Part shown: positions 12,017 to 61,088 of the stretch, one piece after another
Numbering within the stretch: position 1 is the stretch's first letter
Layout of the letters: each line of letters begins with the position of its first letter
Origin: a virus
Taxonomy: Duplodnaviria > Heunggongvirae > Uroviricota > Caudoviricetes
DNA: 64,000 nucleotides
Direction: 5' to 3' (one strand)
Virus record (IMG/VR): IMGVR_UViG_3300042892_003674
Position numbers and translations under genes: made by a program
Notes under the pieces: model-generated
The model's input: only the letters and a program-made list of their open reading frames with translations
Databases searched by the model: none
Told to the model about the DNA's origin: nothing

Positions 12017-12762
12017 TTTTTTAATTTTACAGGATTTTCAAACATTTGTTTATATCCTCTCATAGCGTGTAAATTTATTTTCTTATCTGAAAATAAACCA
12101 TATTTTGAATCGATCTGATAGTATAAAGAACCCCAAATAGAATCTATTAGATGTACCTCTTTTGCATTTTGTATAATCTTTATAAAATCAAAGAAGTTAT
12201 TACTTATCTTATTTAAGTTTACATAGTTATGATCATCTAATTTATTTCCAAAGTCAATTTTTGTTGGAATATGTGTATAGTTACTATTAAACTGATCATC
12301 ATGATACAAAACATATTTATCTCCATATTTATTGATGAAATCATTATAAACTCTTTCTTCTAAATCTATATCACGGTTAAAAGAAAATAGATCAACTCGT
12401 GTGGTATATGGTATATTATAACAAGCATAGAATGATTCTATAAAAAAGTATTGTTCATTACCTCTAAAATATGAATATCTATAATTATCTCTCCGATAAA
12501 CATCATGTTCTCCGTGAAACAATATATCGTAGTTTGTATCAATATTAAGGTGATTTGTATTTAAGTGTCTACCATTATCAGTTGGTATATAAACTACTTC
12601 AACATTTTCTAAATCTTTTACATAAAAGTCTACAAAGTTTCTAGCATCATCTCTTATTATTACCTTTAAATGATCATAGAATTGTAAATACCAATTTATT
12701 AGTGGTAATTGACATACAATATCTGTCCATCCTTGGTGAAACCAAATTATTCCCTTTTTCAT
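12001..12762 (-). CDS. putative glycosyltransferase
   Basis: FHQGWTDI at N-term and EVHLIDS near C-term (GT-B-like); operon context. Confidence 0.5.
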   Translation of the reverse strand: MKKGIIWFHQGWTDIVCQLPLINWYLQFYDHLKVIIRDDARNFVDFYVKDLENVEVVYIPTDNGRHLNTNHLNIDTNYDILFHGEHDVYRRDNYRYSYFRGNEQYFFIESFYACYNIPYTTRVDLFSFNRDIDLEERVYNDFINKYGDKYVLYHDDQFNSNYTHIPTKIDFGNKLDDHNYVNLNKISNNFFDFIKIIQNAKEVHLIDSIWGSLYYQIDSKYGLFSDKKINLHAMRGYKQMFENPVKLKNWNII

Positions 12763-12775
12763 ATTTTTTATTATT

Positions 12776-13579
12776 TTATATCCAACCGTCTGATTGTGAT
12801 TTGTAAATACTATTTAAGTATTGGTGTACATTATTAGTATTGCCTCTGAATAATACTGCCCACATACCACAATTTCCAGAATGTGTTATCAATATATTAG
12901 ATTTTGATACAATTTTTGTTATTGCTAGAAAGTATGCTGCAAATATTTTTTTATCATCCGGTCTAACAGTATGATGTACTGCAATAGTAGGATTAGAGTT
13001 TATACTTGGTATCTCATCAAAAACTATTATTTTACTATTATCTATTTTATCTTTACAATAATTTAGAAAACCCTGGTCATCAGTTTGTATTATTATTTTC
13101 TTTTCTGGATTACTATTAGAACATTCAAGAGTTTTATTTAAAAATTCATCATATGAACCAATATTAGTTTCTTTAACTTTATCATTACCTCTATAAAATA
13201 CCGAAATTGTATTTTGATAGTCTATATTATACTTTTCTTCCATCTCTAGTACCATAGAGTTTACTTCATCAGATAAGCTAAAATACTTCTCAACAAATGG
13301 ATTTATTTCACTAATATTTAATAGTTTATAGTCTGAAAATTGTTCTTCGTCATCAGTCTTTGATAGTTTTATATCAAAGTTATATTCTATACTATTTTCT
13401 TTTTCTGTAAAGTAAAATTTAGATAGATCTTCCGGTTTTGATTTATAAAAGTCAAATTGTCTTGAGGAGTCAACAATAGTAGGTAGATTTTTATTATTAT
13501 TAAAAAAGTTTACTATTTCTATAAGTCTTATAGTACAACAGGAAAAAAAACCAGCATTATGCGTTATTGTTAGTGTCAT
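12776..13579 (-). CDS. putative fucosyltransferase (NodZ/O-FucT-like)
   Basis: HNAGFFSC, VFYRGNDK, IQTDD and SGNCGMW motifs. Confidence 0.6.
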   Translation of the reverse strand: MTLTITHNAGFFSCCTIRLIEIVNFFNNNKNLPTIVDSSRQFDFYKSKPEDLSKFYFTEKENSIEYNFDIKLSKTDDEEQFSDYKLLNISEINPFVEKYFSLSDEVNSMVLEMEEKYNIDYQNTISVFYRGNDKVKETNIGSYDEFLNKTLECSNSNPEKKIIIQTDDQGFLNYCKDKIDNSKIIVFDEIPSINSNPTIAVHHTVRPDDKKIFAAYFLAITKIVSKSNILITHSGNCGMWAVLFRGNTNNVHQYLNSIYKSQSDGWI

Positions 13580-29773: not shown

Positions 29774-29977
29774 TTGATTATTATGAGTAAAAGTTTTAGT
29801 GGTAGTATGATGTCAGATGCTAAGTCAGCGGCACCAGATTACAGATGGGAGAATGAAAGATATTTATTAAATATTATCAAAACTCAATTAGGAATTACAG
29901 ACGAGGATATGAATAACCCAAGTATTGTAAAAGCTAAAGTTAGAGAAGCTAATATCGATAAAATATTAGAAAACTAA
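29774..29977 (+). CDS. small protein with C-terminal RExxIxxIL motif
   Basis: Ends VREANIDKILEN; terminator follows at 29982-30010. Confidence 0.65.
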   Translation: MIIMSKSFSGSMMSDAKSAAPDYRWENERYLLNIIKTQLGITDEDMNNPSIVKAKVREANIDKILEN

Positions 29978-30012
29978 CAAATAAAACCTCTCATTTGAGA
30001 GGTTTTATTTTG

Positions 30013-30083
30013 TTATCCTACAGGGATTCGAACCCCGACTGTTTGGACCAAAACCAAATGTGCTACCGTTACACCATAGGATA
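30013..30083 (-). tRNA. tRNA-Gln(UUG)
   Basis: Cloverleaf; loop TT-TTG-GT. Confidence 0.85.
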
Positions 30084-30088
30084 ATATG

Positions 30089-30160
30089 TAGCGTTGGGGA
30101 ATTCCGAGATCCCGACCGTTCGGATATGAGCCGACTTCTCTGCCTCTGAGATACAACGCC
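30089..30160 (-). tRNA. tRNA-Met(CAU), atypical T-loop
   Basis: Loop CT-CAT-AT; T-loop CTCGGAA; Ile2 identity not excluded. Confidence 0.7.
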
Positions 30161-30167
30161 ATTTATT

Positions 30168-30241
30168 TGCAGTGAATATTGGACTCGAACCACACCTCCG
30201 ACGACTCCGGTCGGTACTCTAACCTTTTAAGCTATATCACT
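30168..30241 (-). pseudogene. degenerate tRNA (Asp-like body, scrambled loop CGGAGTC)
   Basis: D-arm and TTCGAG present; acceptor and T stems mismatched; G33 and T37. Confidence 0.55.
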
Positions 30242-30308
30242 TCTCCAACTTGTCTTTTACTAGATATTACACAAGTCAGGATTACACTTACCTTCCAGTA
30301 AGCTTTTG

Positions 30309-30437
30309 CGGTAGTGGCTGGACTCGAACCAGCAATGTGAAATCCTCTAGGCGACACTTATTCCTAAAACTATAAAGTTTCACAACCCTTATAATTTCGT
30401 CATCCGATTAATCTCTGACTTTAGTGCTAACACTACC
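30309..30437 (-). ncRNA. tRNA-like RNA: acceptor plus T-arm with about 95 nt structured insert
   Basis: GGTAGTG/CACTACC; GCTGG-TTCGAGT-CCAGC; internal TGTGAAA/TTTCACA stem. Confidence 0.65.
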
Positions 30438-30443
30438 AATTTG

Positions 30444-30512
30444 TACCGAGAAAGGGTATCGAACCCTTCTATAGACGGATATGAGCCATCCACGGTCGCC
30501 TGACCCCTCGGT
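30444..30512 (-). tRNA. tRNA-Met(CAU) with minimal D-loop
   Basis: Loop CT-CAT-AT; D-arm GGTC-AGGC-GACC. Confidence 0.65.
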
Positions 30513-30518
30513 ATGTTG

Positions 30519-30591
30519 CAGTTATAACGGGGATCGAACCCGCGACCTCTAGGGCGACAACCTAGCACTCTAACCTCTGAGCTATATAACT
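30519..30591 (-). tRNA. tRNA-Asp(GUC)
   Basis: Loop TT-GTC-GC. Confidence 0.9.
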
Positions 30592-30598
30592 ATTTTAG

Positions 30599-30672
30599 CG
30601 GGACCAACGGGATTCGAACCCGCACCGCGCACCGTGACAGGGTGGCATTGTAAACCATTCAACCATGGTCCC
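30599..30672 (-). tRNA. tRNA-Asp(GUC)
   Basis: Loop CT-GTC-AC; near-identical to 31222-31295. Confidence 0.9.
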
Positions 30673-30681
30673 ATATTTTTG

Positions 30682-30756
30682 TCGGGATAGCAGGATTCGA
30701 ACCTGCGACCTCTTGCTCCCAAAGCAAGCGCGATAACCGGACTACGCTATATCCCG
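30682..30756 (-). tRNA. tRNA-Pro(UGG)
   Basis: Loop TT-TGG-GA. Confidence 0.92.
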
Positions 30757-30817
30757 AAAAATCTAATTCTACGCTAACAGTATGTAGTTCTATGAATTAG
30801 TAACAGTCTCATCTGAG

Positions 30818-30890
30818 CGGTCTATGAGGGATTCGAACCCTCTCCGTACCGGGCGACAGCCGGACATCTTAGCCATTTGACCTATAAACC
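30818..30890 (-). tRNA. tRNA-Asp(GUC)
   Basis: Loop CT-GTC-GC. Confidence 0.88.
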
Positions 30891-30898
30891 AATTTTTG

Positions 30899-30972
30899 CA
30901 GTACTAACGGGACTCGAACCCGCAATCTCCACCGTGACAGGGTGGCGTCATACACCAATATGCTGTAGTACT
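30899..30972 (-). tRNA. tRNA-Asp(GUC)
   Basis: Loop CT-GTC-AC. Confidence 0.88.
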
Positions 30973-30979
30973 ATTTTCG

Positions 30980-31054
30980 TCGCGTAAACAGGACTCGAAC
31001 CTGCAATAACCCCGCGTCCAAGGCGGGTAACCTCTCTCTGTGGATCGTTACGCG
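30980..31054 (-). tRNA. tRNA-Pro(UGG), atypical D-arm
   Basis: Loop CT-TGG-AC. Confidence 0.75.
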
Positions 31055-31063
31055 TTATTTTTG

Positions 31064-31137
31064 TTGTACTATCAGGATTCGAACCTGAGCTACTTGAGTC
31101 AAAGTCAAGTGTGTTTAAACCGCTACACTATAGTACA
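31064..31137 (-). tRNA. tRNA-Gln(UUG)
   Basis: Loop CT-TTG-AC. Confidence 0.88.
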
Positions 31138-31144
31138 GTATTTG

Positions 31145-31215
31145 TTAGAGTACTGGGGGTCGAACCCAGAGCACAGGATCCAAAGGCCTGGATATTACCG
31201 TTATACGATACTCTA
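31145..31215 (-). tRNA. tRNA-Gln(UUG)
   Basis: Loop CT-TTG-GA. Confidence 0.8.
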
Positions 31216-31221
31216 ATTTAG

Positions 31222-31295
31222 CGGGACCAACGGGATTCGAACCCGCACCGCACACCGTGACAGGGTGGCATTGTAAACCATTCAACCATGGTCCC
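31222..31295 (-). tRNA. tRNA-Asp(GUC)
   Basis: Duplicate of 30599-30672 with 1 nt difference. Confidence 0.9.
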
Positions 31296-31304
31296 ATTTA
31301 TTTG

Positions 31305-31378
31305 TCGCAAAGACGGGAATCGAACCCGCTAACTGATGCCTCCAATGCACCCGTGCTTAAAACCTTAGTCACTTCGCG
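31305..31378 (-). tRNA. tRNA-Pro(UGG)
   Basis: Loop AT-TGG-AG. Confidence 0.75.
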
Positions 31379-31393
31379 TTATTTTTATTCCAT

Positions 31394-31429
31394 AAAAAAA
31401 ATCCGTTAGTCTCAAAGACTAACGGATTT
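31394..31429 (-). terminator. attenuator terminator, tRNA array 1
   Basis: AAATCCGTTAGTCT-TTG-AGACTAACGGATTT plus U-tract. Confidence 0.9.
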
Positions 31430-31452
31430 GTAATTTTTATACACGTAATTTC

Positions 31453-31551
31453 TTAATGTGATATAAATACATAGTTAGTCTGGCTCGTGAAACGATCCTG
31501 ATCCTGCATCGGCTGCGGCATAACTACTATATTTACATTTACATTTTTCAT
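31453..31551 (-). CDS. leader peptide 1 (MKNVNVNIVVMPQPMQDQDRFTSQTNYVFISH)
   Basis: Translated by hand; MPQPMQDQD run matches the Met/Pro/Gln/Asp array. Confidence 0.88.
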   Translation of the reverse strand: MKNVNVNIVVMPQPMQDQDRFTSQTNYVFISH

Positions 31552-31555
31552 ATTA

Positions 31556-31615
31556 CTATATATTAAACTTTTATTGTTCCTTTTTGTTTTTCTTTGATTT
31601 TATACTACAAAAGTA
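31556..31615 (-). promoter_or_regulatory. tandem promoter boxes for array 1 (TActTTTG and TAATATATAG)
   Basis: Same two boxes precede leaders 2 and 3. Confidence 0.6.
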
Positions 31616-31645
31616 ATATAAAGTTTTCAATTCACCTAATCTTTA

Positions 31646-31771
31646 TTAGATTTTTTTAATTTCTTTTTTAGAAAGTGCTCTTTCTGAGCTCCAAAAGATT
31701 CTTTTGTATTTCTTTCTCAAGTGTTTAGCCCATTCTTTACAAACTGCAAACTGTCCTTTTTTACCAGCCAT
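31646..31771 (-). CDS. small basic protein (41 aa, not in ORF track)
   Basis: MAGKKGQFAVCKEWAKHLRKKYKRIFW...; TAtcTTTG box upstream. Confidence 0.55.
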   Translation of the reverse strand: MAGKKGQFAVCKEWAKHLRKKYKRIFWSSERALSKKEIKKI

Positions 31772-33306: not shown

Positions 33307-33385
33307 TTAATGAAATCATTTTTCTTATATATTAAATTACAATTATCGAAAAATAAAAAAGTCGAGATTTCTCTCGACTTTTGTT

Positions 33386-34709: not shown

Positions 34710-36926
34710 ATGTTTACAATAGATACAAATGTTTTAAATGGTTCCACTGTTATTTCTGATAAATTTAACATAAGTGCTAGTGCCTCAGCAGCCGATGCAA
34801 CACCTTATATTAATAATATAGAAGAAGAGTACATAATCAGTTTTACAAATTTACAAAATATTAGCAAGATAACCAAATTTACTTACGATACTTTAGGTTT
34901 ATCTACTACAAGATATTTAGCACAATATTATCGTTTATCAAGAGATGGTCAAAAATGGACTAATTGGTTTGACTTAAAAAAATATATTGATAACTTTCCA
35001 GCAATAGACCCGTTAGACCCACTATATTTAGATATTAAATGGGTTAGAAAAGGAACAAATCCACTTGGTTCAATTAGAATATTAGAGTATGCTATTGAAT
35101 GTACAGTTGAAAGACCTATGGTCGATGATGGTTCTGCAGTTCAATTACCAGCAGGAGGTATTCAACTAATTAGACCACCTTTTATTTATAAAGTTTTTAA
35201 ATTAGAAGATGTTGAAGTAATATCATCTACTGGAATACAAGGGGTAGATTTGAAGTGGAGGTACTCTCAAGATAATTCAAGAACTTGGTCAGATTGGGAA
35301 TTTCTAACTAAAGAAAATGTATCTACTAAAAGACTAACACCAACAAGATTTTTTGAAGTTGAGTATTCAATAGAGAATAAATCTGGTGTTCCAGTAAAAA
35401 TACAAGATATAAATTTAATTGGTAATTTTCAAAATGTTACTTTAGATTATCAAAAAAGTAATTTATATGGATTAAGAGAATGTTGTCAATCGAACTTAAC
35501 TGGTGCATTTGATGCTAATGGAAATTTTATACCTAATACTAATTTAAACTCAAATAGTGGTGGAGGCTGTGATTCTACTAATATATTTTCGTCAATGACA
35601 AAAGATGAACAAGCACTTCTTTACAACCCTTATAATCAAAGTACGGCACTAAATCTTTTGAATAAATTAAGTACAGATGCCCAAATGATGTTTGGACATG
35701 CAGTTGTTTACTTTGTAACTGACCCTGATGCAAAAGGTCAAGATTATTCAATGCATGAGTATCAACTATATAATATTGTTTGTGAAGGTGATGTTAAAGT
35801 ATCTGTAAATAATAATGAGTTTCCAGACTCACAAATTACAATGAATCAATTTGATTTAAGTTTATTTGATAATATGGAAGTACACATAACAAAAGAACAA
35901 TTCAAAAGTGTATTTGGTGCACAAAGAAGACCTGGTAAAGAAGACTTTATGTTTTTCTGTCAACTAAGTAGAATGTTTCAAGTAGATCACGTATCTCAAT
36001 TTAGAGGATTTAATAACTCTGCAGTTTATTATAAATTGATATTGAAAAAATACAATCAAAAAGCAAATGTACAAGCTGGTACGACAGAGATTCAAAACAA
36101 ATTGGATATGCTTACACAGAATACTACAATTGATTCATTATTTGGTGTTGAAAATACAGAAGATAAGAGAGCGGTAGCTAATAAAGTTCAAACAAGAACT
36201 TTAACTAGTGATTTAATTAGGTTAGAATATTTGGCAACTATAAATAAAGAACTGATTGAAAATTCTTCTACAGTAATATCTAAATCAAATTATGACTTAT
36301 ATTCAGTTGATGCAGGAATACCAGCAGTAAATTACTTTAACTCTGATCCTATTCTAAAAGTTTCCGATAATATTGGATTTACAATTTGGTTTAATATCAA
36401 TAATTATATAGATGGTGAGGTTTATAACTTCTTTAATTACTATGATGATACTAATGTTGGTAATCCAATTGGTTGGAAAGTGAATTTAACTAATGATGTA
36501 ATAACCGTTACTTTAAATGGTGATACTTATACAACAAATTCTGATTTATTGTTAGATGAAGAAGTTTGGTATTGCTATACATTAAATGTTGATCAAAGAA
36601 ATAGAAAAATATCTCAATTTATTTATAAACGTAATGTTGATTTTGAAGAAGAAGCGGGAAGACTTACAAGTAACTTCCTAAGAAAAGTTTATTCTGATGA
36701 ACAAGATATGACACCATTTGAATTTACTATTGAAAATACTAATCCTCAATTATTAGGTTCCGATATGAAAGTAACTAATATTAGATTATTTACTGATATT
36801 ATACCAGAATCTACATTTGATAAGATACTTAATCAAGCGATTATTAGAGACGATTCTAAGTATTTAGTTTTTGCAGATAACGCGAATACACGTCTCACAC
36901 TTCCAAATTTTCCACTATTTGAATAA
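34710..36926 (+). CDS. probable virion protein with neck (T4 gp14-like) central domain and C-terminal LamG-like domain
   Basis: FGHAVVYF...EYQLY...EVHITKEQFKSVFG..RP...DF.F pattern; TAATATATA box upstream. Confidence 0.5.
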   Translation: MFTIDTNVLNGSTVISDKFNISASASAADATPYINNIEEEYIISFTNLQNISKITKFTYDTLGLSTTRYLAQYYRLSRDGQKWTNWFDLKKYIDNFPAIDPLDPLYLDIKWVRKGTNPLGSIRILEYAIECTVERPMVDDGSAVQLPAGGIQLIRPPFIYKVFKLEDVEVISSTGIQGVDLKWRYSQDNSRTWSDWEFLTKENVSTKRLTPTRFFEVEYSIENKSGVPVKIQDINLIGNFQNVTLDYQKSNLYGLRECCQSNLTGAFDANGNFIPNTNLNSNSGGGCDSTNIFSSMTKDEQALLYNPYNQSTALNLLNKLSTDAQMMFGHAVVYFVTDPDAKGQDYSMHEYQLYNIVCEGDVKVSVNNNEFPDSQITMNQFDLSLFDNMEVHITKEQFKSVFGAQRRPGKEDFMFFCQLSRMFQVDHVSQFRGFNNSAVYYKLILKKYNQKANVQAGTTEIQNKLDMLTQNTTIDSLFGVENTEDKRAVANKVQTRTLTSDLIRLEYLATINKELIENSSTVISKSNYDLYSVDAGIPAVNYFNSDPILKVSDNIGFTIWFNINNYIDGEVYNFFNYYDDTNVGNPIGWKVNLTNDVITVTLNGDTYTTNSDLLLDEEVWYCYTLNVDQRNRKISQFIYKRNVDFEEEAGRLTSNFLRKVYSDEQDMTPFEFTIENTNPQLLGSDMKVTNIRLFTDIIPESTFDKILNQAIIRDDSKYLVFADNANTRLTLPNFPLFE

Positions 36927-39377: not shown

Positions 39378-39409
39378 AAAAAACCCAAACTTTTTGAGTT
39401 CGGGTTTTT
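39378..39409 (-). terminator. attenuator terminator, tRNA array 2
   Basis: AAAAACCCGAAC-TCAAAAA-GTTTGGGTTTTTT. Confidence 0.88.
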
Positions 39410-39436
39410 ATGAATTTATTATAATATACTTTAACT

Positions 39437-39526
39437 TTATACCATACATATCTCATTACCCGAAGTCGTGTTATTCACACAATTCGTAATCGTAATCACA
39501 TTAATATTTACAGTATTTGTTTTCAT
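39437..39526 (-). CDS. leader peptide 2 (MKTNTVNINVITITNCVNNTTSGNEICMV)
   Basis: Residues 3-21 are only T/N/V/I/C, the five specificities of the array. Confidence 0.9.
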   Translation of the reverse strand: MKTNTVNINVITITNCVNNTTSGNEICMV

Positions 39527-39530
39527 TATA

Positions 39531-39588
39531 TTATATATTAAATTTTTATTGTCCCTTTTTGTTTATCTTTATTTATAGTACAAATATA
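39531..39588 (-). promoter_or_regulatory. tandem promoter boxes for array 2
   Basis: TAtaTTTG (39581-39588) and TAATATATAA (39531-39540). Confidence 0.6.
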
Positions 39589-39631
39589 CTATAAGTTTTT
39601 TAATCTACCTAATTTTATTAGTATTATTTTG

Positions 39632-40255: not shown

Positions 40256-40274
40256 AATTTTTATTTTTTTCCAC

Positions 40275-40308
40275 AAAAAAACCCGAAACTTTTATATTTC
40301 GGGTTTTG
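40275..40308 (-). terminator. attenuator terminator, tRNA array 3
   Basis: CAAAACCCGAAA-TATAAAAG-TTTCGGGTTTTTTT. Confidence 0.88.
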
Positions 40309-40331
40309 TTTGTATATTTAGTTATAATATG

Positions 40332-40436
40332 TTATCCAATAACAGTATCATTTGCTCTAAATAAGGCAAAACCCGGTTCACGTCTTAGACATAAGACATT
40401 CAGCGTTAAGTTAATATTTAGATTAGTTGTTTTCAT
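40332..40436 (-). CDS. leader peptide 3 (MKTTNLNINLTLNVLCLRREPGFALFRANDTVIG)
   Basis: 6 Leu and 3 Arg codons upstream of the Leu/Arg array. Confidence 0.85.
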   Translation of the reverse strand: MKTTNLNINLTLNVLCLRREPGFALFRANDTVIG

Positions 40437-40440
40437 TATT

Positions 40441-40501
40441 GTATATATTAAGATTTTATTCTCTCTTTTTGATTATTTGTTATTTTTATAGTACAAAAGT
40501 A
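40441..40501 (-). promoter_or_regulatory. tandem promoter boxes for array 3
   Basis: TActTTTG (40494-40501) and TAATATATAC (40441-40450). Confidence 0.6.
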
Positions 40502-40526
40502 ATAAAAGTTTTCTATTGTACCTAAT

Positions 40527-60827: not shown

Positions 60828-60868
60828 AAAAAAACCCAATCTGATTTTTACGTCAGATTGGGTTTTTT
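60828..60868 (-). terminator. attenuator terminator, tRNA array 4
   Basis: AAAAAACCCAATCTGA-CGTAAAAA-TCAGATTGGGTTTTTTT. Confidence 0.9.
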
Positions 60869-60891
60869 GTATAATAATGTTCTTTAACTCA

Positions 60892-60993
60892 TTACTTTAT
60901 ACACATAACGCTTCTGACCGATGGTATTGTATACCCCGCTTCATACCCGCCTATGGCTTCGATAGCTATTGTTATGTTAGTAATTGTTGTCAT
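60892..60993 (-). CDS. leader peptide 4 (MTTITNITIAIEAIGGYEAGYTIPSVRSVMCIK)
   Basis: Residues 9-21 are only I/A/E/G/Y; 5 ATA codons match tRNA-Ile(UAU). Confidence 0.9.
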   Translation of the reverse strand: MTTITNITIAIEAIGGYEAGYTIPSVRSVMCIK

Positions 60994-61031
60994 TTTTTCT
61001 ATTTTTTAAATTGTTGTTTTTAATTCTTCTA

Positions 61032-61039
61032 CAAAGATA
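61032..61039 (-). promoter_or_regulatory. TAtcTTTG promoter box for array 4
   Basis: Matches the Bacteroidota -7 consensus TAnnTTTG. Confidence 0.6.
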
Positions 61040-61088
61040 CGATAAGTTTTTAAACTACCAAATCTTTTTTTAATTTTTTATTCTTTAG

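Follow-up and report, generated by a model that had tools for sequence, protein, structure and literature searches.

Upstream of a tRNA gene array in the 64-kb stretch of phage DNA analysed here (the window) lies a promoter-leader-terminator unit, unit A, which we interpret as a ribosome-mediated leader-peptide transcription attenuator that exerts negative feedback on tRNA supply. We put the probability of this interpretation at about 70%. The original prediction had read the locus as an attenuator, and that reading is supported at the sequence level by paralogues in the window, homologues in other phages, a match between leader composition and array content, a complementary segment that tracks its own terminator, indels in multiples of three, and the geometry of the leader. 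Judged by its sequence, unit A has the parts of the leader-peptide attenuator class: an ORF with consecutive regulatory codons, an intrinsic terminator, and a candidate antiterminator exclusive with it. From these features we infer that ribosomes translate the ORF, that the host couples transcription to translation, which way the switch acts, and what physiological signal drives it; the direction of regulation would follow from geometry and from folding models.

Table 1. Coordinates and contents of unit A, its sister units in the window, and the corresponding units of its nearest relatives.
Feature	Position	Strand	Description
Putative promoter box	31606..31639	-	TTAGGT (-33-like), AAACTT, then TACTTTTG (31615-31608), then TA
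5' untranslated leader	31552..31603	-	~52 nt from the presumed transcription start; includes AAAAAGGAACAATAAAAGTTTAATATATA
Leader ORF	31453..31551	-	ATG at 31551, TAA at 31455-31453; 32 codons + TAA; product MKNVNVNIVVMPQPMQDQDRFTSQTNYVFISH
Predicted protector hairpin, 5' strand (region 1, codons 3-11)	31521..31545	-	partner 31477-31455
Putative sensing run, codons 11-19	31495..31521	-	ATG CCG CAG CCG ATG CAG GAT CAG GAT
Candidate antiterminator segment, codons 24-26	31474..31481	-	AGACTAAC; begins 13 nt past codon 19
Intrinsic terminator	31391..31429	-	14-bp stem, 31429-31416 with 31412-31399; loop TTG
tRNA array of unit A	30012..31378	-	15 tRNA-like genes, in order Pro, Asp, Gln, Gln, Pro, Asp, Asp, Pro, Asp, Asp, Met(CAU), two degenerate, CAU, Gln
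Terminator closing the unit A array	29979..30010	-	14-bp stem directly after the last tRNA-Gln
Unit B	39526-39437		leader MKTNTVNINVITITNCVNNTTSGNEICMV; array Asn x3, Ile x2, Val x2, Cys x2, Thr x3
Unit C	40436-40332		leader MKTTNLNINLTLNVLCLRREPGFALFRANDTVIG; array Arg, Leu x5
Unit D	60993-60892		leader MTTITNITIAIEAIGGYEAGYTIPSVRSVMCIK; array Glu, Tyr, Ile(UAU), Gly, Ala
LR745206 unit A			leader MKTINVNIAPVNPQPQDQDPMRKANYVFMIS; array Pro, Asp x4, one unreadable tRNA, Pro, Gln x3
LR756502 unit A			leader MKNLILNIAIQVQRQVVVDQDQPDTTEANCDFIRE; array Pro x2, Asp x3, Gln x4
Units of LR745206 and LR756502			Pro/Asp/Gln; Asn/Leu/Arg/Val/Ile/Thr; Glu/Tyr/Ile/Gly/Ala; Lys/His/Phe/Trp; Ser/Arg

Unit A is read from the minus strand (Table 1). 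The downstream element of its promoter box fits the Bacteroidota -7 consensus TAnnTTTG, on which basis we presume that it functions as a promoter. The composite motif AAACTT-N4-5-TAnnTTTGTA occurs four times in the 64-kb window against 0.02 occurrences expected, each time preceding a tRNA leader, and the same box stands at the head of the homologous units in the two nearest relatives, LR745206 and LR756502. Within the untranslated leader, the AAAAAGGAACAATAAAAGTTTAATATATA block is kept in units A, B and C and in relatives. The leader ORF and its MPQPMQDQD run at codons 11-19 are present in the sequence where they had been placed. The terminator hairpin follows the stop codon after a 22-nt spacer, has a free energy of -18.4 kcal/mol and a T-run of eight (five of them past the stem), and is separated from the first tRNA by 12 nt. 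The claimed complementarity between the 5' arm of this 14-bp hairpin and a segment about 13 nt past the run proved to be an exact 8-nt match: AGACTAAC is identical to the opening 8 nt of the terminator 3' arm and complementary to GTTAGTCT (31423-31416) in the 5' arm.

The window, which is ~28% G+C, contains 41 tRNA genes detected by ARAGORN, all on the minus strand and grouped in four arrays. ARAGORN recovered 11 of the 15 genes in the array behind unit A, and Rfam at a relaxed threshold added four more. One of the additions (31378-31305; 28.6 bits) has the anticodon UGG by eye and an orthologue in LR745206 that is called as Pro-UGG; another (30160-30089; 38.9 bits) has the anticodon CAU by eye; the remaining two are degenerate tRNA-like genes with no readable anticodon. 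The 13 readable tRNAs (Pro x3, Asp x5, Gln x3 and CAU x2) give the same counts as the original prediction, in which the CAU tRNAs appear as Met. All codons of the run are readable by the anticodons present in the array (UGG, UUG, GUC and CAU).

The run itself is exceptional in this DNA. MPQPMQDQD is the sole stretch of seven or more residues made up only of M, P, Q and D in the six frames of the window, and the amino-acid frequencies of 46 long window ORFs predict 0.008 runs of nine. Its GC-rich codons had been noted as unusual in AT-rich surroundings; in the same ORFs CCG makes up 6% of Pro codons and CAG 12% of Gln codons, and G occupies only 8% of third codon positions. Five of the seven non-Met codons in the run have G in the third position, where 0.47 would be expected, compared with one of 21 non-cognate codons of the unit A ORF. 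Across 20 related units, cognate codons upstream of the antiterminator carry a third-position G in 46 cases; the expectation is 10.8. Rare G-ending codons, which are read through wobble by the U34 tRNAs of the array, may have been picked as the slowest codons and hence the most sensitive ones. A Gln-CUG tRNA occurs in the array only in LR756502 and L249, whose leaders use mostly CAA, a pairing whose bearing on codon choice is suggestive only.

The window holds four paralogous promoter-leader-terminator units, each ahead of its own tRNA array (Table 1). In units B, C and D a strong U-tailed hairpin lies 24-28 nt past the stop codon, and a segment at codons 20-28 is complementary to the 5' arm of the unit's own terminator. 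The leaders are enriched for the residues of their own arrays, namely TNTVNINVITITNCVNNTT in unit B, L/R in unit C and IAIEAIGGYEAGY in unit D. The layout is common to these three sisters and to no fewer than 17 units of related huge phages (two Mahaphage genomes and IMG/VR contigs). The leaders also share an N-terminus, MK-T/N-x-N-x-N-I, which in the window is found only in the four leaders, in a 59-aa ORF inside array B and in a 26-aa ORF.

BLAST searches matched unit A at 67-73% identity in LR745206.1 (634,780 bp) and LR756502.1 (642,428 bp), two records labelled 'uncultured phage'. These nearest relatives of the unit A locus are the 634-kb and 642-kb genomes of the Mahaphage clade, for which Bacteroidetes hosts were predicted (Al-Shayeb et al. 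2020, PMC7162821). Each of the two genomes contains five units (Table 1). The source of the window is a huge phage of Bacteroidota.

A pattern scan yielded seven further unit-A homologues, all of them ahead of Asp/Pro/Gln tRNAs; one, L194, lies in a phage 91-97% identical to the window. The pattern that gave these seven of the ten family members fixed GATCAGGAT and GTTAGTC, so the invariance of these two elements is not counted as evidence; the antiterminator side, CTAAC, was outside the pattern. A scan of IMG/VR with the promoter box returned mostly chance single matches, with tRNAs within 500 nt at only seven loci. The same kind of scan in bacterial genomes gave at least 120 matches, and among the matches listed one locus had a downstream tRNA and was without a leader. 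Use of the design by hosts was thus not seen among the bacterial matches listed, a sample too small to exclude it.

To relate leader composition to array content, we scored every leader against every array within each genome, as amino acids and as wobble-readable codons. At both levels of scoring, no other permutation equalled the true leader-array assignment (24 permutations in the window, 120 in LR745206 and 120 in LR756502). The Leu/Arg and Asn/Val/Ile/Thr/Cys units, separate in the window, correspond in LR745206 to a single merged array with a single merged leader (MTTMNLNMTMNLTLNVVNITLCNIR...). All ten unit-A homologues have a P/Q/D-rich centre and lie ahead of Pro/Asp/Gln arrays. Among them the composition of the run is kept and the order of its residues is not, which points to codon content, not the peptide, as the object of selection. 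Asn, Ile, Thr and Val are abundant in all leaders (the shared N-terminus included) and in AT-rich frames, and column B of the leader-array matrices is inflated as a result. One exception to the match is the L081 leader, which fails to mirror its Arg tRNAs. Covariation between the Met codons of the run and the CAU tRNAs of the array is only suggestive; the co-occurrence of the two has exceptions.

Several features of the alignments provide indirect evidence that the leader ORF is translated. Among the ten aligned unit-A homologues the ATG is invariant and the ORFs span 29-35 codons. All 26 gap runs within the ORF are multiples of three, whereas gaps beyond the stop codon are 1-8 nt long and show no periodicity. 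The stop codon lies 18-32 nt ahead of the terminator in 20 of 20 units, a distance at which a terminating ribosome would leave the hairpin unblocked.

For each unit we computed the most stable RNA duplex that the entire leader ORF can form with the unit's terminator 5' arm plus two loop bases, using dinucleotide shuffles as the control. The duplex was better than in the shuffles (p<0.05) in 17 of 20 units, and the complementary segment was always downstream of the run, at codons 19-34. Own leader-terminator pairs averaged -12.0 kcal/mol, compared with -7.8 kcal/mol for cross-family pairs (Mann-Whitney p = 5e-10). Taken alone, unit A gives a modest result (an 8-bp duplex of -10.6 kcal/mol; p = 0.038 against dinucleotide shuffles), and the other leaders of the window give similar duplex energies with the unit A 5' arm.

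Comparison between families shows matched changes on the two strands of the candidate antiterminator helix: the Ser units carry ATTCGA:TCGAAT or GTTCGA:TCGAAC, the Lys/His/Phe units GTTCGG:CCGAAC or ATTCGA:TCGAAT, and the Leu units CGGGTTTT:AAAACCCG or TGAGGGTTTT:AAAACCCTCA. In the A family the 7-bp antiterminator core can pair in ten of ten members and in this register alone, with 87.8% of cells paired compared with at most 50.6% in slid registers. Among these ten members the helix varies only between A-U and G-U and has no double-sided changes, in part because the pattern by which seven of them were found fixed GTTAGTC. The terminator stem has compensatory changes in three pairs across homologues.

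Folding of the complete unit A leader at equilibrium, with the ribosome represented as a mask, was uninformative as a test of the switch, as the 14-bp terminator wins in every ribosome state (P = 0.9). The unit A antiterminator, at 8 bp, is short beside this 14-bp stem. Since the terminator dominates at equilibrium, the switch has to be kinetic, as in classical attenuators. We therefore modelled the state in which the 5' arm and loop have emerged and the 3' arm is absent, folding only the RNA 3' of the ribosome footprint. With the A site at codons 2-20, the core of the 5' arm is predicted to be paired upstream with a probability of ~0.98, and its partner in the minimum-energy fold is AGACTAAC. 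The predicted probability falls to 0.1-0.3 with the A site at codons 22-24 and to 0.08 at the stop codon. Units B, C and D and both orthologues show the same behaviour under the ribosome masks. The proposal that a ribosome stalled in the run would leave the antiterminator segment free is thus in agreement with both the geometry and the model. When the ribosome is at the unit A stop codon, its 5' edge is ~3 nt downstream of AGACTAAC, so that the segment is not physically covered.

In the minimum-free-energy fold of the untranslated unit A leader, AGACTAAC is buried in a long AU-rich hairpin around the run. This hairpin may tentatively be equated with the protector (1:2) of the classical model. 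The folding z-score of the ORF region is -1.95, and the hairpin is neither clearly conserved nor predicted to dominate in LR745206 or LR756502. For the two orthologues, folding predicts the antiterminator even when the leader carries no ribosome, from which it follows that the untranslated default may differ between phages.

On the mechanism we favour, transcription would start at the Bacteroidota-type promoter and the 32-codon leader would be translated while RNA polymerase advances. If Met-Pro-Gln-Pro-Met-Gln-Asp-Gln-Asp is decoded slowly, with its rare CCG and CAG codons read through wobble by UGG and UUG tRNAs, the ribosome would wait at codons 11-19 with a footprint that stops short of AGACTAAC. 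The free segment could then pair with GUUAGUCU, the loop-proximal half of the terminator 5' arm, as it emerges. This pairing would take up the bases needed to nucleate the hairpin, and in place of termination there would be readthrough into the Pro/Asp/Gln/Met array. If decoding is fast, the ribosome would be on or past AGACTAAC (codon 22 to the stop codon), the 5' arm would be left free to form the 14-bp hairpin, and transcription would terminate at the U-run. The net effect would be negative feedback, in which production of each tRNA block scales with how short usable tRNA is for the codons of that block.

The same parts could instead constitute a gate on translation, in which translation of the leader is needed for readthrough and the unit serves as a feed-forward report that translation is running, not that tRNA is short. 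It speaks for such a gate that the untranslated unit A leader is predicted to sequester the whole of AGACTAAC (31545-31521 with 31477-31455) and that, in the model, a ribosome anywhere at codons 2-20 releases it. We nevertheless regard a pure gate as unlikely, because it leaves unexplained that leaders carry the codons of their own arrays, and rare ones at that, and because the protector hairpin, a weak one with z = -1.95, is not conserved in LR745206; the same behaviour also fits attenuation by tRNA shortage, as the 'superattenuation' state of classical attenuators. We give similarly poor odds to the idea that termination here is constitutive and leaky, or that the hairpin simply marks the 3' end of a short leader RNA, with the ORF untranslated or serving some other role (RNA stability or processing of the tRNA precursor) and the complementarity incidental. 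The weak complementarity of unit A alone (p = 0.038) and the dominance of its terminator at equilibrium speak for that account, and conserved hairpins in the 5' UTR hint at further functions at the RNA level. Against it stand the match of leaders to arrays in three genomes, the frame-preserving indels and the conserved placement of ATG and stop, and the way the complementary segment follows its own terminator across families.

Were the RNA a ribosome-free sensor resembling a T-box, binding tRNAs directly by codon-anticodon pairing, the run would represent multiple specifiers; its codons are cognate to the downstream tRNAs, and T-box RNAs likewise toggle between terminator and antiterminator. 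We find this very improbable. Rfam gave no T-box and no riboswitch or leader match that would suit it even at E<=1, a conserved acceptor-binding bulge is absent, nine consecutive different specifiers would be without precedent, and the conserved ATG, in-frame stop and 3-nt periodicity of indels indicate translation. Finally, short ORFs are common, and peptides rich in N/I/V/T arise easily in AT-rich DNA, so that the ORF might have arisen by chance in the spacer between promoter and terminator. With 0.008 such runs expected in the window and a design that recurs in at least 20 units, chance is the least credible of these explanations and conflicts with the comparative data.

Attenuation by a leader peptide, the reading we prefer, places unit A beside well-studied systems. 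Like trpL, hisL, pheL, leuL, thrL and ilvL/ivbL, it combines a promoter, a short ORF with regulatory codons, a terminator, and a downstream segment that can pair with the terminator 5' arm, and by analogy with the enterobacterial leaders a stalled ribosome should favour readthrough. The thr and ilv leaders also sense several amino acids with one leader; unit A would sense four. The leu leader also uses rare codons. Unlike the enterobacterial leaders, whose targets are biosynthetic enzymes, the units described here have tRNA genes as their output, so that the loop would close on tRNA supply itself. They are also phage-encoded, lie in a Bacteroidota context, lack a Shine-Dalgarno sequence, and occur as four to six paralogous units per genome that divide the genetic code.

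Unit A has no likeness in sequence or covariance model to the Rfam leader families (Trp, His, Leu, Thr, Phe). Rfam at the gathering score detected tRNAs in the whole window, but no leader, T-box or riboswitch family. At E<=1, a search of 29950-31650 gave no T-box and, besides tRNAs, only sub-threshold chance hits, of which those to Phe_leader (25 bits versus 55) were located on the other terminator, at ~29980.

The pheM leader of E. coli controls pheST, which encodes phenylalanyl-tRNA synthetase, by leader-peptide attenuation that senses the cognate charged tRNA. There the target is a synthetase mRNA, a single amino acid is sensed, and the element is cellular, whereas here the targets are viral tRNA genes. 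T-box riboswitches resemble unit A in that the choice between terminator and antiterminator is set by the state of a specific tRNA; the genes they control serve aminoacylation and amino-acid supply. They differ in binding uncharged tRNA without a ribosome and in having a conserved Stem I, a specifier loop and the T-box sequence, no trace of which was detected in unit A. The grouping of the phage tRNA genes is as in the clusters of T4, T5 and huge phages. To our knowledge, leader-peptide attenuation has been described for genes of amino-acid biosynthesis and for a few synthetase genes; tRNA genes are not known to be controlled in this way. Our literature search, which lay mostly outside subscription journals, turned up neither tRNA genes controlled through a leader peptide nor codon-matched leaders. 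The report of the Mahaphage genomes gives tRNA counts only, and its text contains neither 'attenuat' nor 'leader' (PMC7162821).

A broader view of these units, which we advance tentatively and consider somewhat short of likely, is that they form a tRNA homeostat. In each huge-phage genome, four to six paralogous attenuators would split the genetic code among them, and the speed of the ribosome on 'hungry' wobble codons would sense a shortage in one block and switch on only the matching array. Such shortages could arise from host shut-off, from a mismatch in codon demand, from host anticodon nucleases, or from other defences that target tRNA.

If the homeostat view is correct, the arrays would be the first known tRNA genes under leader-peptide attenuation, and the leaders would be a viral sensor of tRNA-directed immunity. 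With ribosome speed on codons as the sensor and the tRNAs that read those codons as the output, the feedback loop would be the shortest possible. Leaders of this kind would offer synthetic biology compact, codon-programmable sensors of tRNA availability, and their operation would be evidence for functional transcription-translation coupling in Bacteroidota. The design, which recurs block by block across the code in some of the largest phages known, would connect to current work on phage tRNAs as countermeasures against tRNA-cleaving defence systems (for example, PMC11555353), and it offers a testable answer to how and when phages express their tRNA repertoires.

The promoter box is common to units B, C and D, the sisters of unit A in the window, and the leader of each matches its own tRNA array (B, Asn/Ile/Val/Cys/Thr; C, Arg/Leu; D, Glu/Tyr/Ile(UAU)/Gly/Ala). 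Each leader contains a segment able to pair with the 5' arm of the unit's own terminator, a putative antiterminator; the complementarity in unit D is no stronger than in shuffled sequences (p = 0.43).

Coordinates of the units and associated genes (L081 is a locus on another viral contig)
Feature	Sequence	Coordinates	Strand	Description
Unit B	window	39378-39598	-	sister of unit A; terminator-complementary segment TTCGGGT:ACCCGAA
Unit C	window	40270-40511	-	sister of unit A; terminator-complementary segment CGGGTTTT:AAAACCCG
Unit D	window	60828-61049	-	sister of unit A; terminator-complementary segment GTCAGA:TCTGAC
59-aa ORF (MKTLNVTIGFSSDDENYNW...)	window	38944-38765	-	inside array B, immediately 3' of tRNA-Val(AAC)
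Degenerate tRNA-like gene 1	window	30387-30309	-	array A; 23.5 bits
Degenerate tRNA-like gene 2	window	30241-30170	-	array A; 29.3 bits
L081 unit	IMG/VR 3300028283_000494	12522-12890		same promoter box, then G+C-rich 42-codon ORF (…RRGTGTGTGTCVPAGCGFEGMNG)

The 59-aa ORF shares the N-terminal motif MKT-x-N-V-x-I with the leaders, and may be either a protein gene embedded in array B or a decayed leader. The degenerate tRNA-like genes of array A, the second of which has the anticodon loop CGGAGUC and lacks U33, may be pseudogenes or non-canonical tRNAs.

The motif TTTAATATATA occurs 5-6 nt upstream of the ATG of leaders A-C (at 31566, 39541 and 40451, minus strand). Further copies are found in the window at 2216, 34696 and 61935 (plus strand) and at 33335 and 41154 (minus strand), and several protein genes have the motif just upstream, for example the 738-aa ORF at 34710. 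TTTAATATATA may act in translation start or as a promoter specific to the phage; in the latter case, nearly leaderless mRNAs could be a further form in which the leaders are made.

The 5' UTRs of units in L122, L125, L019, L058, L050 and L081 contain a small hairpin just 5' of the TTAATATATA block, with arms that vary among these units (CTCC/GGAG, GCTT/AAGC, AGGTA/TACCT and TGGAAAAAA/TTTTTTCCA). Compensatory changes appear to preserve the hairpin. The leaders of L019 and of both units of L020 end in an identical D-L-T-T-L/I* motif (GACTTAAC(G/T)ACT), an ending common to leaders of different families from the same or related contigs; these leaders may therefore have an element in common close to the stop codon, acting as RNA or as peptide.

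In the alignment of unit A homologues, leaders ahead of arrays with tRNA-Gln(CUG) (L137, L249) use mostly CAA for Gln. Among the arrays with Gln(UUG) only (the window, L132 and L182), the window leader uses CAG throughout. The L182 leader is mostly CAA as well, so the association of array Gln(CUG) with leader CAA, seen in few cases, is not a clean trend.

The promoter box also occurs without an obviously matched leader. In L081, the G+C-rich ORF is followed by a different terminator and by Arg(UCG), Arg(ACG) and Arg(CCU) tRNAs, which the leader does not obviously mirror; either L081 is an exception to the leader-array match or its array is truncated. In the host phylum, the same box (TTTGGT...AAAAACTT...TATCTTTGTA; minus strand, the match beginning at base 2247 of the reverse complement of the locus) precedes a tRNA-Leu gene of Phocaeicola barnesiae DSM 18169 (L296; NZ_KB894643.1), a locus with neither leader ORF nor terminator. 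The phage units may represent a Bacteroidota stable-RNA promoter that was copied and to which an attenuator was added.
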